From Escherichia phage MN04, in the sequence record MT129654.1: 64,000 nucleotides of DNA. One strand, written 5' to 3'. The notes below the pieces were generated by a model. That model did no database searches. It had not been told where the DNA came from and was given only the letters and a program-made list of their open reading frames with translations. This document shows, one piece after another, positions 3,420 through 27,320 of this stretch. Every line of letters begins with the position of its first letter. The stretch's first letter is position 1. Both the position numbers and the translations under genes were made by a program.

Positions 3420-4747
3420 TTACATTTGAAGACTTGAATATTGGGCAACGGACGGCCTTTAAAGAAATCATTGAAGCTATTAAACGACGTAAGGGCGAAT
3501 GGATTACATTGAATGGTCCTGCTGGTACAGGTAAAACGACCCTTACTAAATTTATCCTTGACCACTTAGTCAAGAATGGCGAACTCGGAGTTATTTTGAC
3601 CGCACCTACACACGCGGCCAAGAAGGTATTGTCGAAACTCGCAGGCCAAGAAGCATCGACAATCCACCGAATCTTAAAGATTAACCCGACTACATACGAA
3701 GACCAGGATATTTTTGAACAACGTGAAGCTCCTGACTTGAGCAAATGTAATGTTCTTGTGGTCGACGAAGGCTCAATGATTGACGGTAAGTTGTTTAAGA
3801 TTATCGAAGCTTCAGTTCCGCCATGGTGCACTGTACTGGGGATTGGCGACCGAGCTCAGTTACAACCTGTAGAACCAGGAAGTGATGGAAGTCCTCAGTT
3901 GTCTCCATTCTTTACCCATCCTAAAATTAAACAGCTACACCTTACTGAAGTAATGCGTAGTAATGCTCCTATCATTGAGGTTGCTACTGAAATCCGTAAT
4001 GGTGGATGGTTCCGAGATTGTATATTCGAAGGTCACGGTGTCCATGGTTTTAAATCTCAAACGGCTTTAAAAGATTTTATGATGAATTATTTTTCCATCG
4101 TAAAAGATGCTGATGCCTTGTTTGAGAACAGGATGTTTGCTTATACAAATAAATCAGTTGAAAAACTGAATAGCATTATTCGTAAAAAGCTTTATGAAAC
4201 CGATACGCCTTATATCAAGGGCGAAATCCTCGTGATGCAAGAGCCTTTTATTAAGGAACTTGAATACGACGGTAAGAAATTCTCTGAAACCATTTTTAAT
4301 AACGGCCAGATGGTTCGTATTTTAGATGTGAACCACACCTCATTGTTCTTGTCTGCCAAGGATGTAGGCACTCGCCAGATGATTAATTACTGGGACCTCC
4401 AGGTTGAATCTGTTGATGAGGATGACGAGTACTATGTAGAACACTTGAAAGTTATTGATGAGGCTTCAGTTGAGAAGTTCCATTATTTCTTGGCTAAGGT
4501 GGCTACTGAGTACAAGGCTATGCGTGGAACAGGTAAGAAACCTAAGTGGGCTGATTTCTGGAAAGCTAAGAGAATGTTCACTAAGGTTCGAGCTCTTCCG
4601 GTGAGCACTGTCCATAAATCACAGGGTCTTACTGTCCAAAACAGTTTCATCTATACTCCGTGCATGCACATGGCAGATGCCAATTTAGCTTCACAGCTGG
4701 CTTATGTTAGTATTACCCGTGCTCGCACTGATGCCTATTATGTTTGA
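3416..4747 (+). CDS. dda: Dda DNA helicase (SF1B)
   Basis: 443 aa; Walker A GPAGTGKTT; long stretches matching T4 Dda as remembered (LTAPTHAAKK, PWCT..GIGD, TPCMH); dda.1-dda-dexA synteny. Confidence 0.95.
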   Translation: MITFEDLNIGQRTAFKEIIEAIKRRKGEWITLNGPAGTGKTTLTKFILDHLVKNGELGVILTAPTHAAKKVLSKLAGQEASTIHRILKINPTTYEDQDIFEQREAPDLSKCNVLVVDEGSMIDGKLFKIIEASVPPWCTVLGIGDRAQLQPVEPGSDGSPQLSPFFTHPKIKQLHLTEVMRSNAPIIEVATEIRNGGWFRDCIFEGHGVHGFKSQTALKDFMMNYFSIVKDADALFENRMFAYTNKSVEKLNSIIRKKLYETDTPYIKGEILVMQEPFIKELEYDGKKFSETIFNNGQMVRILDVNHTSLFLSAKDVGTRQMINYWDLQVESVDEDDEYYVEHLKVIDEASVEKFHYFLAKVATEYKAMRGTGKKPKWADFWKAKRMFTKVRALPVSTVHKSQGLTVQNSFIYTPCMHMADANLASQLAYVSITRARTDAYYV

Positions 4748-4754
4748 GGAAAAT

Positions 4755-4994
4755 ATGATTAAAGTAACTAAAGACCAATTTTATAAGTTGAAATTCGAGA
4801 CGGAATATATTATTAAGGTCAACCCAGACGATACAAATATCCGTGGCAAGGCTCATAAGGTCTTGCATTCACTTAAAGAGATTGAAAGTGATTTTATTGC
4901 AGTGCAAAAACTGATGGACGACAATATCTCTTCGGTTTATATTGAAGACTATACTGTTGGCCAAATCCGAGACCTTATGAGGTACGTTAAATGA
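4755..4994 (+). CDS. Hypothetical protein (dexA.1/dexA.2 position)
   Basis: 79-aa ORF from ATG 4755 with SD ggagg-like (tgaggaaaat) upstream; stop overlaps dexA start. Confidence 0.4.
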   Translation: MIKVTKDQFYKLKFETEYIIKVNPDDTNIRGKAHKVLHSLKEIESDFIAVQKLMDDNISSVYIEDYTVGQIRDLMRYVK

Positions 4995-5665
4995 AAGATA
5001 TAATTATTGACTTCGAAACCTTTGCCACTACCCAAAATGCAGCAGTTATCGACCTCGCCGTAATTGCTTATGACCCTAATCCAGAGGTAGTAGAATCGTT
5101 TGAAGAGCTTACTCAACGCGGTCTTCGTATTAAATTTGATTTGGCTTCTCAACGCGATAAACGTCTGTTCTCTAAAAGCACATTGCAGTGGTGGAAAGAA
5201 CAAGGACCTGAAGCACGTAAAAACCTGGCTCCGTCCGAAATTGATGTGAGTACTTCTATCGGCATTGGTAATTTCCTGGAATACTGCCGTAAAAACGAAG
5301 TGGACCAATGGAAATCCCAGATGTGGTGCCGCGGAATGTCCTTTGACTTTCCGATCTTAGTCGACCTTATTCGTGATGCTTATCGTTCTGAAGGTGTTCC
5401 TGAGAACGAAATCGATACAACTAAGTTGGAACCGGTTAAATTCTGGAACCAACGTGATATCCGCACGGCCATTGAAGCCTATTCACTGACGCGTGGATTA
5501 AGCATGTGCCCTCTGCCTAACGGAACATTGAATGGCTTTGTAGCCCATGACTCTATCCATGACTGTGCTAAGGATATCTTGATGCTGAAATATGCCCAAC
5601 GATATGCTTTAAACCTGGAAGATGTTCCTGAGAATCCAGACCCATTAAGTGTAAAAAATCGATAA
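4991..5665 (+). CDS. dexA: Exonuclease A (DnaQ-like 3'-5' exonuclease)
   Basis: 224 aa; N-terminal MKDIIIDFETFATT exo motif I (D-x-E); size and position match T4 DexA. Confidence 0.85.
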   Translation: MKDIIIDFETFATTQNAAVIDLAVIAYDPNPEVVESFEELTQRGLRIKFDLASQRDKRLFSKSTLQWWKEQGPEARKNLAPSEIDVSTSIGIGNFLEYCRKNEVDQWKSQMWCRGMSFDFPILVDLIRDAYRSEGVPENEIDTTKLEPVKFWNQRDIRTAIEAYSLTRGLSMCPLPNGTLNGFVAHDSIHDCAKDILMLKYAQRYALNLEDVPENPDPLSVKNR

Positions 5666-21648: not shown

Positions 21649-21929
21649 TGAATCTTAAACAACTCCAGATTGATGCAATCGAAGCCCATATCAACCATAT
21701 TAAACGTCTGAATGTTATGGTGGAAGATAATTGGGGAACTTATGTCAACCAACCGGCTTGGGATGCATTAGATCATGAATATATAAAGAATATTAGTTCT
21801 AAGACAATTCATGGGAATATGGAAGGGTTGAAGCCGTTCCTACGTGATATGTATATTGCAACTAATAAAGAAATTATCAGTTCTCTTGAATATCAATTAA
21901 GGAAATTACGTGAACAATCTTGTAGCTAA
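21648..21929 (+). CDS. Hypothetical protein (size and position compatible with T4 arn; unverified)
   Basis: 93-aa ORF upstream of asiA. Confidence 0.3.
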   Translation: MNLKQLQIDAIEAHINHIKRLNVMVEDNWGTYVNQPAWDALDHEYIKNISSKTIHGNMEGLKPFLRDMYIATNKEIISSLEYQLRKLREQSCS

Positions 21930-22162
21930 GCACGATTTCAATAAGGCTTCGGTCCATAAGGACAAGAAGAAAAATTTTAAAGAGTCCAAGCGTAAGCAGA
22001 AACATAAGGGTAAAGGGTATGAGTCATAACTTAGAGAATACCGTAACAGGTATGCGTACGCGTGAGCAGGAGTGCTTTGAGGAATTCCTAGGAGCTGATT
22101 TTAAGTTCCAGGAACCTATTGAAGAAATGTATCAGGAATATGTTAAAAAGAACGAAGAACAT

Positions 22163-22191
22163 GTTTACAATCCATAAGGATATGTTATTAT
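22163..22191 (+). promoter_or_regulatory. T4-type early promoter of asiA
   Basis: GTTTAC 22163-22168, TATTAT 22186-22191. Confidence 0.6.
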
Positions 22192-22232
22192 AGCCTTATC
22201 AGATAATGTCGTACTGAATTGAAGAGAATATT

Positions 22233-22508
22233 ATGACTAAAATTGAAATCGTTTCCGAAATTGCTACTATTGTTTCCATTTTGATTAAAACGGATTGTGA
22301 AGACATCATGCAACGCCGTGATGAGTTTATTGCCTTTTTGAATGAGTTGGGTATTCGTAATGAACATGGAAAGGAACTTAACGGTCTATCTTTTAATAAA
22401 CTCTTTAAGTCTTTAACTGAAGATGAACGTGATACTCTTATTGAGCAATTTAATGAAGGGTATGAAGATATACACCGTTATCTAATGATGTATACCTCCA
22501 ATTTTTAA
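22233..22508 (+). CDS. asiA: AsiA anti-sigma-70 factor
   Basis: 91 aa; IAFLNELGI ... LIEQFNEGYEDIHRYLMMYT matches T4 AsiA (90 aa) as remembered. Confidence 0.9.
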   Translation: MTKIEIVSEIATIVSILIKTDCEDIMQRRDEFIAFLNELGIRNEHGKELNGLSFNKLFKSLTEDERDTLIEQFNEGYEDIHRYLMMYTSNF

Positions 22509-23158: not shown

Positions 23159-23176
23159 ACTTTTCTCCTTTAAAGA

Positions 23177-23184
23177 TATTTATA
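23177..23184 (-). promoter_or_regulatory. T4 late promoter TATAAATA (minus strand) upstream of t
   Basis: plus-strand tatttata at 23177-23184 = TATAAATA on the coding strand of t. Confidence 0.6.
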
Positions 23185-23200
23185 ATTTAATACTTTCGTA

Positions 23201-23974
23201 TTATAACCAAGAGCCGTAGATAGTGCCTGTAGCGCCCCATGATGGGGCGGAACCGAATACTGCTCTACCAGGAGCACCACCACCCGACCTGGATAAGTTT
23301 TTACCCCATCCATCTCCGCCCCAACCTCCAGCATCACCGCCATTGCCTCCGCCGAATTGGGAAGTGTAACCGGCGCCACCTGGACCATCATAACTAGCAT
23401 TGCCACCTGGCCAATTAACACCACCGCCGCCGAGACCAAATGGTCTGCCGCCACCGCCACCTGCTGTAGAATTTGCAGGCCAACTATTCTGTAATGATAC
23501 GGCACCGCCGCCACCACCACCGGAGGCTATCACACCATAATTCCAAATGCGAAGTCGCCCACCAATATCATTTTGGATTACGTCACCACCATTAGTGCCT
23601 GGGCTTCCATTTACGCTACCATTACCACCTCGGCCCCACATATGAACACCACCATGAATATTCAAAGTAACATATTCGTTAGGGGTATCACCGTACATAA
23701 AGAACAACGGAACATCTTTAGTATATGATACTAAGTTGCCTGTGATATTAAACACTATAGGAGCACCGCCGGCTTCAAAACAACGGTCTCTAAACCATTG
23801 CCCGTTAAAGTTATGGTCGGCCCCAAGCGTGTGAATTACTTCAACAGATCGACCTATCATATTACTCATCCAAAAAGGAACACCCATTCTTAATCTTACG
23901 GCTGCTCCTGCCATCCAAGGGTCTCCAGTTTGTACCCTTGCAGACCATCCTACCCACGGTCCTTCAACTGCCAT
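23201..23974 (-). CDS. 38: Long-tail-fibre tip adhesin gp38, T2-type with glycine-rich motifs
   Basis: 257 aa from ATG 23974 (track starts at upstream TTG); repeated poly-Gly blocks (GGGGGG, GGGGG, GGGG) separated by short variable segments; directly downstream of gp37. Confidence 0.85.
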
Positions 23975-24005
23975 ATAAACCTCCAAGGGGCCTAAGCCCC
24001 TCTTA

Positions 24006-27000
24006 TTATTTTAACAATGATTTAACTAAAGCTTTAAGTTCTTCAATCTCTGATTTCAATTCTGTTATTTCGGCAGTATGCTCATTGATTGCAGCTGTAT
24101 TTAAACCAATTACACCGTTATAGTTCAAACGAAGTAAAGCTTCACTATTAGGGTCACCTTCAACCAATTCAGGTAAAATAGCTTGAACTTCTTGGGCAAT
24201 TAAACCAGCATTAGGTTCCCATTTCTGATTACCTTCCTCATCTAGGCCTCGCTTCTGCATATAAGTGTAACCGTTAATTTTAGAAAGCTTCTGAGAAGCA
24301 TTTTCAAATTTAACAAGGTCTTTTTTAACGCGAATATCAGAACGAACATAAACATCACGGACATATGTAGAATAGGCATCACTTTGTTGGATTAAATGAC
24401 CAAAAGAAATAATAGCCCTTCCTGTTTCGGTCCACAAAGCACCGGTGGTATCCCAAAGACCTTGATGGATATGGTAAGAGCTAGACCAAGATGCAATATG
24501 CATACCATTGGCAACCATATTGATTCGGCCATCACCGCCGTGTGATAATCCTGTGTCATTATCACCAATAGCAATACTAGGAGAGCCTAATCCGTTAACA
24601 GTTCCAACACCAATGGCAGGAGTCTGGACTAAAGTCGGGGCGTAAAATAAACCGCTAGAGTGGAATTCGAAAATACCTACAGGACCGTCGCCACGCTCGG
24701 CATTACCTACTCGAATTATCGCTTGTCCCCATGCTTGTGGAGTACGACGCATGCCTAATTCAACAGAAGTAGTATAACCCTGACCACTAATTACAGATCG
24801 GCCTTTAATAATGGGATAATAACTGTCTTCACCCACACTACCAAACTCAAGGAAATAAGGTGCTTCTAAGCCCCATTGGTCACCCCATGCACCAGATTTA
24901 TGTGCAATCCAGTTGGAACCGTTCATATAAATACGGTCTCGGTTTACATTGAATACTGAAGCACCTTGTGGAGATAAAACAACCTCACCATTATGGGTGA
25001 TATTAATACCACCTTGGGATTGGAAGCTCCAGAAGGCTAAACCGTTATCAGCACCACCATTACCTACATACCAGTTATCAACACCACCTTTTTTACCCTT
25101 AACATAACCAGCTTCATCTGCCGGATAATCAATAACAATAGCGTCTGAATTGGTTTTAAGAGTTAAGCGGCCTGTCATTGTGTCCCCGCCTTTACCAACA
25201 CGAGTATTCACCGCTGCGTCAAGGTTAGTAGCACCGCTATACTTGTTCCAAATAGAACCTGCAATATTACCATCAGTATTCATGAAAGCTGTACCGGCAT
25301 ATAAGCGGTTCTGAGCCATGAAGTTACCTTCTTTGGTAAAGCGCCAATATTTTAATCCTGTAGCATCACCATCACCAAGCAAATCACCTTGAGCAACAAT
25401 TCGATATTCACTTGTAGCTCGGTCCATACCTTGAGTAACAGTTACGTTCGAATCAATATTTTTCTGCTTAGTAATAGGGTAAAATGCTTGAGTTGCAGCA
25501 TCGAGCGTTTGATATACCAGAGCTTTAGTCGTGTTCTGGTTGGCATAAGATGCACCGTTACTATTAGGGAATTCTAATGCACCATTACCCCTAAAATAAA
25601 CCTGGTCTGCTTCTAAGTTAGGGATTTTAACCCGACCGGTGTCTAACATAATACTTAATGGGCGTAATGGACCCAATCCGCCACTTTCACCAGCATTAAC
25701 ATTGGTTGGGATAATATGTAGCTGGTCTTCTGAATTTCGAAAAATAACACCATACTTATCATTCCAAATACGAAGACCACTAGCAGCGCGGACTTTAATT
25801 TCATTGGAAACATATAGATTGCGTTTTAAAGATGTATCTTGACTGACAGACAATCCTTCGACGATGTTCATCGTGCCGTTTAAATAAGATTCGACTTTAC
25901 CTGCCGTATTTCGTTGAATATAGTGCATCCAGCCGGTAGCATCAGATGTTTCCAATACGTTTTTACGAGAACCACCTACCGTATTAAAAGTGTCACCCCA
26001 ACCTTTGAGCTCTATATTATCAACTGAACTATATCCTGAGGTACTTCCTTTAAAAAGCACAGTGGAAGCGTTACCACGACCGTCAATATTAACCGAACCA
26101 CCACGGACTTCAACGTTACCAGGAGTAACCAACAACCCACCATCAGTGTTAACGTTTGTTACACCTTTACCACGGAAATAATGGTGGTATTTACCACTCT
26201 GATGATAACCTAAAAGAGTCTGCCCATCACCAAAGCCGTTTTTATCATTAGTAGTATTAACAATAACTAATGGATAGTTTTGAGCTGTAGGAAGAATTAA
26301 ATCAGAACCGTTGGTTGAATAACCCGCAACTAACTGTTTAAGGCTTGTAACTTCAGTCGGAGTTGTAAGTAAAGTATAAGCTCCATTATTAACTGTATGG
26401 AACTGGCCGTCTTGTTTCCATTTCAAACCTGTGTTATTGTCACCAAGAGCAATTGAAGCCGTCCCTAATTCAGAATATCCTTTAGGGCCACCTGGAAGAC
26501 CTACAGAAATAGAATGACCGGCTTTCAATCCACCTGCCCAGTTAAACGACAAAATATAAGTGTCTAAGCCATCTCCGGAATACCAGGCTATTCCGTCATT
26601 AACATTAACTTCGTGGAAAATACCTGCTCCTACAGCATTTCGCATAACACGGAGGTGGTTAATAGCCGTTTCGCTTTCTGCCAATGGAGTGTTATTTGAT
26701 AATGAAGATATATCGTAATCGCCGGCGGCTTTACCGTCGGTAATAACTTTATTAGTATAAATTATTGGAGATTTTACCGATGTTCCACCAGAAATAGATG
26801 GAGCATAAAATAAACCGTCACCGTTGAATGCAAAAATATTAGATGTTGAATTAGTGTAATCCTGAACACGAACATTTAAGATTTGCTTGGTATCCCCAGC
26901 ACGGTTTTGAGAATAAATTATGCCTCTTTCACGCGCATCAGCCAAATCCTGGAATCGAACGTGGGTAGTTCCTGCACCCCGTACAAGAACTTCACCGTTA

Positions 27001-27320
27001 TCTGTCATTAGGCGAGATTTTGCTGTGATATCACCATTTGCTGTTATACTTCCGGATGTCGTATAACTACCTGTTTGGGTAAAAGCACCCTTCAGGGCAT
27101 AATCGCCGGTCTGGTTGTAGTTACCGTTATGAATAACGTTTCCGTCGATATTACCACCTTTAGCAAAGCCAAGGTCGATAATCGCTCCAGTGTCATCTTT
27201 GGTAAATAACAAACGGTCTTTTAAGTTAATAGCCAGCTCGCCTTCAGCCAACTGCGCTGGCGTAGGACGTACACCAGCTACTTTACTTCTTTTAAATTGT
27301 ATCTGTTTTAAAGTAGCCAT
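24006..27320 (-). CDS. 37: Long tail fibre distal subunit gp37
   Basis: 1104 aa; N-terminus [43 protein letters not shown] matches T-even gp37. Confidence 0.92.

Follow-up and report, generated by a model that had tools for sequence, protein, structure and literature searches.

Gene 38 of Escherichia phage MN04 probably encodes a glycine-rich tail fibre adhesin of the T2 type, with OmpF as its likely receptor

Introduction

In most T4-like phages the long tail fibre is capped by a small glycine-rich protein, gp38, which determines the bacterial surface protein on which the phage lands. The subject of this study is gene 38 of Escherichia phage MN04, located in a stretch of 64,000 nucleotides from sequence record MT129654.1 (hereafter the window, to which all positions refer). 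Its best described counterparts are the gp38 proteins of S16, for which a structure of the (gp37)3-gp38 tip is available (6F45), and of PP01, represented by its receptor-binding domain (9V85). S16 recognizes OmpC of Salmonella and PP01 binds OmpC of E. coli O157, while the family members of T2 and T6 use FadL and Tsx, respectively. The layout of glycine-rich motifs (GRMs) and hypervariable segments (HVSs) has been described by Trojet et al. 2011 (PMC3157838), and the role of Trp residues as docking prongs has been described from the S16 structure (PMC6851490). In T4, gp38 is not a component of the virion and gp37 itself bears the receptor-binding tip (PMC6851490).

The 257-aa protein analyzed here is already public. 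An identical sequence is deposited in GenBank as 'hypothetical protein MN04_00207' of Escherichia phage MN04 (QIN95996.1), and UniRef names the identical protein 'Receptor-recognizing protein gp38'. An initial annotation, made from the letters alone, had proposed an adhesin-type gp38 of about 257 aa with several poly-Gly blocks, and had taken the short variable segments between these blocks as the candidate specificity loops.

Results

Family, fold and fibre partner point to an adhesin

On the grounds of its family, fold, gp37 partner and synteny, we put the probability at roughly 0.93 that the gene 38 product is a monomeric adhesin capping the distal tip of the long tail fibre. Both Pfam families of such proteins are matched far above their cut-off of 25 bits: PF21721 (Gp38_N) at aa 1-40 (3e-19, 69.2 bits) and PF05268 (GP38) at aa 45-257 (1.7e-81, 273.7 bits). 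Sequence matches in the PDB are the PP01 gp38 receptor-binding domain (9V85, 6.3e-74) and, over its full length, S16 gp38 (6F45_D, 2.3e-48). An AlphaFold2 (AF2) model computed with a multiple sequence alignment (MSA) of 77 sequences reached a predicted local distance difference test score (pLDDT) of 92.3 and a predicted template modelling score (pTM) of 0.82; this model was used throughout instead of the one from the single sequence, which was unusable (pLDDT 30.7, pTM 0.19). When it was compared with the PDB by Foldseek, only 9V85 (template modelling score, TM, 0.92; root-mean-square deviation 1.3 Å) and 6F45_D (TM 0.83-0.86) were retrieved and the rest had E>2, although agreement of a model built on the family MSA with these crystal structures is expected and not independent. 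The adhesin type that had initially been proposed is thus borne out by both Pfam families, by homology to both structures and by a fold match exclusive to those two. No evidence against the adhesin assignment was found in these analyses.

The fibre subunit encoded next to gp38 fits the same picture. MN04 gp37 matches the Pfam families Gp34_trimer, gp37_trimer and Peptidase_S74 (PF13884; aa 994-1053, 2.5e-12). T4 gp37 matches PF07484 and PF03335 (Collar, Phage_fiber), whereas the window gp37 matches neither. The C-terminal 195 aa of the window gp37 show homology to the S16 gp37 fragment on which gp38 sits in 6F45 (6F45_A, 2e-46). With the T4 tip domains missing and a Peptidase_S74 chaperone domain at the end of gp37, the earlier proposal that gp38 and not the gp37 tip binds the receptor agrees with what we find. 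The S16 cleavage motif RDLNVS^SDRRIKKD aligns with RDVYVR^SDIRVKKD in the window (^, cut), and from the motif DVYVR^SD at gp37 aa 989-995, with cleavage sites taken from PMC7917993, a cut after Arg993 that would release a 111-aa domain is predicted. Synteny is likewise preserved: gene 38 directly follows gene 37 and precedes holin gene t, and the genes run 34-35-36-37-38-t, followed by asiA on the opposite strand, as they do in JS10, RB51, RB69, T2, T6 and S16.

Two other roles have been weighed against, or beside, that of an adhesin. To the idea that the protein is of the T4 type, in which gp38 is a chaperone for the assembly of gp37 and not a structural protein, we give practically no credence. 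What speaks for it is solely the product name 'distal long tail fiber assembly catalyst', inherited by the GenBank entries of JS10, RB69, IME281 and others. Pfam holds no model of T4 gp38, so the test for the chaperone type was a direct BLASTP comparison, and the closer relation to T4 gp38 that would have spoken against the initial annotation is absent: the best match has E=1.1 over 14 residues, by which identity with the T4-type chaperone is already refuted. T4 gp38 itself matches neither PF05268 nor PF21721 and is smaller, as had been stated (183 aa versus 257 aa). Moreover, the window gp37 has an intramolecular chaperone domain in place of the T4 tip domains, the gp38 fold equals that of the S16 and PP01 adhesins, and the notes in the T4 and RB69 records call the 'gp38' of the T2 subfamily unrelated, the adhesin. 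The second role is compatible with an adhesin, in that gp38 might in addition be needed in assembly for maturation of the gp37 tip. The probable co-transcription of genes 37 and 38 and their tight coupling through a 31-nt spacer would suit such a dual role, but gp37 has its own intramolecular chaperone domain, and T6 gene 38 amber mutants reportedly form virions of normal morphology whose sole defect is in adsorption (PMC3157838), so that we regard a dual role as decidedly improbable.

Glycine blocks and domain layout

With 66 Gly (25.7%), gp38 stands apart from the other ORFs (open reading frames) of the window, since among the 43 of at least 150 aa the median is 6.3% and the next highest value 12.7%. 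Gly makes up 35% of aa 111-257 and 42% of aa 148-236. The runs are G6 at 152-157, G5 at 172-176, G4 at 182-185 and G3 at 208-210 and 231-233, together with ten GG pairs; both the length of 257 aa and the poly-Gly blocks had therefore been described correctly. The G+C content of gene 38 is 50.1%, compared with 39.5% for the window, because the Gly codons are mostly GGT and GGC. Given this composition, the number of runs as such is not unusual: in 20,000 shuffles of the residues, the count of runs of at least three Gly was reached in 3504. The longest run was reached in 955. The signal that chance does not explain is the Gly composition, its concentration toward the C-terminus and its conservation, not the run statistics.

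Conservation was measured as column entropy in an alignment of 24 distinct gp38 homologs, taken from 25 loci in phage records and IMG/VR contigs; the IMG/VR scan gave 18 loci, enough for an entropy profile and too few for a census of subtypes. The Gly blocks are nearly invariant (0.04-0.5 bits for GRGGNG 114-119, G6 152-157 and 172-185), and the same invariant Gly columns are seen in a 77-sequence alignment from a large protein database. Segments 120-128, 158-171, 186-198, 203-207 and 221-230 reach 1.5-2.3 bits, and nearly all indels are confined to variable segments and to the poly-Gly run. The variability initially ascribed to the segments between the Gly blocks therefore holds across the family, but not within the protein's own subtype, where these segments are 92-99% identical.

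The domain layout (Table 1) follows from the model and the alignments. In the attachment domain, W7, W20 and W35 are invariant in a 10-sequence alignment and each sits just before one of the three AF2 helices (8-16, 21-27 and 36-39), in agreement with the docking prongs published for S16 (PMC6851490). The first part of the beta-helix (AF2 strands 46-50, 53-56, 73-77, 81-83, 91-93, 102-106 and 111-113; pLDDT 93-97) has a low family entropy of 0.74 bits. The polyglycine II (PGII) sandwich that follows (Gly 35-42%, pLDDT 88-98) is not continuous, as beta-helix strands intervene at about aa 131-150. Three further strands (239-241, 245-248 and 251-253) lie at the C-terminus, with the conserved motif G241, P244, W246, G250, I252 and G254.

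Table 1. Features of the gene 37-38 region of the MN04 window
Feature	Position	Strand	Description
Gene 38	23201..23974	minus	257 aa, stop codon within coordinates; receptor-recognizing adhesin (probable)
Attachment domain, aa 1-44	23843..23974	minus	Three short helices, each after a conserved Trp; predicted to dock on gp37 trimer tip
Beta-helix domain, first part, aa 45-113	23636..23842	minus	AF2 strands
PGII sandwich, aa 114-236	23267..23635	minus	Conserved Gly-rich motifs and variable loops
Loop A (HVS1), aa 120-125	23600..23617	minus	SVNGSP; aligned to PP01 loop A W119-I124; 1.81 bits over 120-128
Loop B (HVS2), aa 161-170	23465..23494	minus	Aligned to PP01 loop B Q161-V170; 2.0 bits over 158-171
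Loop C, aa 184-188	23411..23425	minus	GGVNW; aligned to PP01 loop C N184-W189
Loop D (HVS3), aa 203-207	23354..23368	minus	YTSQF; aligned to PP01 loop D N204-Y209; highest entropy, 2.32 bits
Loop E (HVS4), aa 221-227	23294..23314	minus	DGWGKNL; aligned approximately (indels) to PP01 loop E N225-S231
C-terminal strands, aa 237-257	23204..23266	minus	Return to and close the beta-helix
Gene 37-38 spacer	23975..24005	minus	31 nt; hairpin, then Shine-Dalgarno GGAGG, then AUG
Spacer hairpin	23986-24001	minus-strand mRNA	AGGGGC-UUAG-GCCCCU; between gene 37 stop and gene 38 Shine-Dalgarno
Gene 37	24006..27320	minus	1104-aa distal long-tail-fibre subunit, trimer predicted to carry gp38; synteny with JS10 gene 37
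gp37 aa 994-1104	24009..24341	minus	Intramolecular chaperone domain, predicted auto-cleaved after Arg993 (DVYVR^SDIRVKK)

Five segments map to the distal receptor loops

Loops were mapped by HMMER alignment to 9V85, with an offset of 199 subtracted from the chain residue number. This offset reproduces every residue named in the PP01 paper (W119, Y159, K168, Y169, G208, Y209, A228 and Y230), and the assignment rests on the sequence alignment to PP01, not on model geometry. In the model itself, pLDDT drops five times within the C-terminal domain, in the 10-residue blocks starting at 121, 161, 181, 201 and 221, and these drops fall on the five mapped loops. According to the PP01 paper, docking models made without restraints can end up at a wrong site. 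Loop C is identical in RB51, RB69, Bas47 and fPS-2. In loop D, Gln206 is encoded by CAA at 23357-23359. The proposal that the segments between the Gly blocks are the specificity loops has to be narrowed accordingly, in that five of them map to distal loops of the PP01 structure but other turns between Gly blocks are conserved. From the alternating topology, we infer that these conserved turns (e.g. 177-181 RPFGL and 214-215) face the beta-helix.

OmpF is the likely primary receptor

Our best guess for the primary receptor is OmpF, which we consider probable although not certain. Over the specificity domain (aa 105-257), the MN04 protein is 92.2-93.5% identical to RB51, RB69, Bas47, fPS-2 and fPS-90, and 50-67% identical to other subtypes. 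At the level of at least 90% identity over this domain, 74 phage records were found, including RB51, RB68, RB69, FL31, AlbertHofmann (Bas47), AugustSocin, ChristianSchoenbein, fPS-2 and fPS-90; among the records fetched, members of the subtype come from at least four genera (Tequatrovirus, Mosigvirus, Dhakavirus and Gaprivervirus). Several of these phages have been characterized. RB51 uses OmpF according to random barcode transposon sequencing (RB-TnSeq) and mutagenesis (bioRxiv 10.64898/2026.04.02.716166), Bas47 does so by a complemented knockout (PMC8594841), and complemented mutants established Yersinia OmpF together with the lipopolysaccharide (LPS) core as the receptors of fPS-2 and fPS-90 (PMC7917993). 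FL33 and FL34 also use OmpF (PMC12032242). MN04 shares Gln206 and the complete loops C and D with the OmpF binders RB51, Bas47 and fPS-2. With a loop set of the RB51/RB69/Bas47/fPS-2 subtype, MN04 would most likely have OmpF as its primary receptor.

Several points weigh against OmpF and keep it short of certainty. Relative to all three validated OmpF binders (RB51, Bas47 and fPS-2), the window protein differs in loop A (S120T, S124N), loop B (P166A, A167P, S169A) and loop E (K225N, N226H), as well as at three positions outside the distal loops (G197A, A243S, L257I); in this notation the window residue comes first and that of the comparison phage second, so that S120 is the MN04 residue in S120T. 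The subtype can be switched to another porin by a single substitution: Q206L alone turns RB51 from OmpF to OmpW, and L206Q turns RB68 back (bioRxiv 10.64898/2026.04.02.716166). In PP01, specificity for OmpC lies mainly in loop E (PP01 paper). FL31, whose domain is 92.8% identical, plated only about 1 log less efficiently on an ompF mutant (PMC12032242). Finally, our literature search found no receptor data for MN04, JS10 or any Dhakavirus.

These observations could mean that the loop A, B and E substitutions of MN04 and JS10 give a primary receptor other than K-12-type OmpF, such as OmpW, OmpC or a divergent OmpF allele, or an added contribution of LPS. Seven substitutions in the mapped distal loops separate MN04 from every validated OmpF binder, one residue change suffices to move RB51 to OmpW, FL31 depends weakly on OmpF, and in the decisive loop E of PP01 the position of Tyr230, which is among the residues cross-linking to the porin (PP01 paper), aligns with Asn226 of the window. 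Against this stand the 92-94% identity of the specificity domain, the identical loops C and D with Gln206, and published analyses in which the phylogeny of the gp38 C-terminus predicts the receptor (PMC12032242). Furthermore, the substitutions are mostly conservative (S/T, S/N, S/A and a P-A swap), and JS10 was propagated on E. coli K-12, an OmpF expresser. We therefore consider such a receptor somewhat unlikely, and less likely still the more specific idea that the MN04/JS10 allele is a naturally retargeted OmpF-type adhesin, which would bind another porin, or a divergent OmpF allele, through its loop A, B and E substitutions. If true, the latter would be a second natural few-residue receptor switch in the subtype, after RB68 Q206L. 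OmpF thus remains the receptor that we would favor.

Two records of this subtype deserve mention at codon 206. The fPS-2 record (LR215722.1) has an ambiguous CNA at gp38 codon 208, which corresponds to window codon 206; the ambiguity is at the second position, the very nucleotide whose A-to-T change moves RB51 from OmpF to OmpW, and a mixed population at the site of the receptor switch may be its cause. In the RB68 record (KM607004.1), codon 206 is CAA (Gln) and gp38 is identical to that of RB51, unlike the RB68 stock of the preprint, which has Leu206 (T at gene position 617; bioRxiv 10.64898/2026.04.02.716166). RB68 stocks or records differ at this codon.

Gene start, spacer and transcription

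Gene 38 is read from the minus strand, with its ATG at 23974 and a TAA stop at 23201-23203, as seen from the ORF and its translation. The initial coordinates (23201-23974) were exact; the strand had been left unstated and is supplied here. The program-made ORF list runs the gene back to a TTG at 23986. We place the start at the ATG because the TTG overlaps the region of the hairpin and the Shine-Dalgarno sequence, and because all homologs begin with MAV.

The hairpin in the gene 37-38 spacer has a computed energy of -13.2 kcal/mol for 39 nt (RNAfold). It is kept, with compensatory stem changes, in 11 relatives (JS10, RB51, RB69, FL31, Bas47, UPEC01, T2, T6, fPS-2, S16 and JS98), most of which have a UNCG-type tetraloop; UUAG is found in the window and in JS10. 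On the plus strand the hairpin scores as terminator-like, and antisense early transcription could also be stopped there.

No T4-type late promoter (TATAAATA) was found between genes 37 and 38, so that gene 38 is most likely transcribed as part of the late transcript of gene 37. The consensus TATAAATA does occur on the minus strand at 23177-23184, between the gene 38 stop and the start of t. A late promoter is present at the same place 5' of t in all relatives checked, with only a shortened AATAAATA in the spacers of T2 and T6. As the motif occurs in 5 copies across the window, not above chance (6.9 expected), it is position and conservation, not enrichment, that support the promoter before t. 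A scan of the gene 38 region for sigma-70 promoters gave sites no more numerous than in shuffled sequence.

ORFs of 51-116 aa in other frames overlap gene 38 at 23170-23520 (minus strand) and at 23239-23397 and 23573-23728 (plus strand). They are by-products of a GGN-rich, stop-poor sequence, not genes. Elsewhere in the window, the arn.2-asiA stretch (21929-22233) is about 300 bp shorter than in JS10 (JS10 locus 4441-5037) and contains one 52-aa ORF (22019-22177), compared with three small ORFs annotated in JS10; the two phages differ here by a small indel affecting hypothetical early genes. ARAGORN found no tRNA genes in window positions 1-64000, so that the T-even tRNA cluster, if this phage has one, sits outside the window.

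Discussion

By homology to S16, T2 and PP01, gp37 of MN04 would be cleaved, gp38 would dock onto it and be carried in the virion, and its loops would select the receptor. In this scheme, gp37 would trimerize with the help of its own C-terminal intramolecular chaperone domain, which would then cut itself off after Arg993 and expose the docking face for gp38. The exposed tip of gp37 is expected to be flat, with three symmetric hydrophobic pockets, into which a single gp38 would plug through its N-terminal three-helix domain with Trp7, Trp20 and Trp35. The remainder of gp38 is predicted to be a beta-helix, from which two excursions would form a lattice of polyglycine II helices out of the conserved Gly blocks. 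This rigid scaffold, free of side chains, would display five short loops at its far end, and contacts between these loops and the extracellular loops of an outer-membrane porin would set the host range.

The label 'distal long tail fiber assembly catalyst' or 'assembly chaperone' is found on the gp38 entries of JS10, RB69, IME281, EcWhh-1, vB_EcoM_005, UPEC01, ECP52, wV7, Bp7 and others. Such labels are inherited from the unrelated gp38 of T4, and public names are thus either wrong or, as with the 'hypothetical protein' of MN04, uninformative. We regard the annotation as settled in favour of gp38, and not the gp37 tip, as the probable receptor-binding protein of this phage. The architecture of the family, its structure, its modular evolution and its receptor logic have been published, as has the exact protein, and the finding opens no new biological question. 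What it adds is a testable receptor prediction, OmpF, along with seven loop residues that separate the Dhakavirus allele from the characterized OmpF binders, a list that could be useful for predicting host range or designing phage cocktails.

The closest relative in the phage collection searched is JS10 (Dhakavirus; gp38 ACL78468.1), with 99.2% protein and 97.9% DNA identity, the same gene order and a 22-kb neighbourhood that is 95.5% identical. Its gp38 differs only at K225N in loop E and at A243S, plus 12 synonymous codon changes. The RB51/RB69/Bas47/fPS-2/fPS-90/FL31 subtype is 87-93% identical overall and 92-94% in the specificity domain, with the same Gly blocks. Identity is unevenly distributed along the protein, however. 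In fPS-2, the attachment domain is only 57% identical and the loop domain 93%, which shows module exchange; in QL01, the attachment domain is 82% identical and the loop domain 59%; and in JS98, a member of the same genus, the beta-helix part is 96% identical and the loop domain 67%. The three modules of gp38 thus have separate histories. Codon differences are mostly synonymous within the subtype (82 synonymous and 17 non-synonymous relative to RB69, 12 and 2 relative to JS10), a pattern that points to purifying selection on the variable segments. The segments called hypervariable accordingly vary between subtypes but are constrained within one, in line with the published picture of cassette exchange (PMC3157838).

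Beyond the subtype, likeness to the described systems lies in the architecture rather than in the loops. PP01 gp38 is 64% identical over 218 columns and shares the beta-helix, the PGII sandwich and the five loops, but all five differ in sequence, with insertions of 1-2 residues in and next to loops C and D and a different length of loop E. S16 has the same three-domain plan, the three conserved Trp, and a homologous gp37 tip and chaperone domain, although its gp38 is only 43-49% identical, depending on the alignment, its loop B is shortened by a deletion of 5 residues and its other loops differ. The gp38 proteins of T2 and T6 belong to the same family and share the gene position and the GRM/HVS layout, but they are 50% and 63% identical, respectively, and their loop sequences are unrelated. 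The initial comparison with T2 and T6 was thus right as to family and class, whereas the closest relatives are those of the RB69/RB51/JS10 subtype (87-99%); 'T2-type' is correct as a class name, and T2 is not a close relative. In contrast, the T4 protein is unrelated in sequence and shares with the gp38 of MN04 only its gene number and its location between gene 37 and t.

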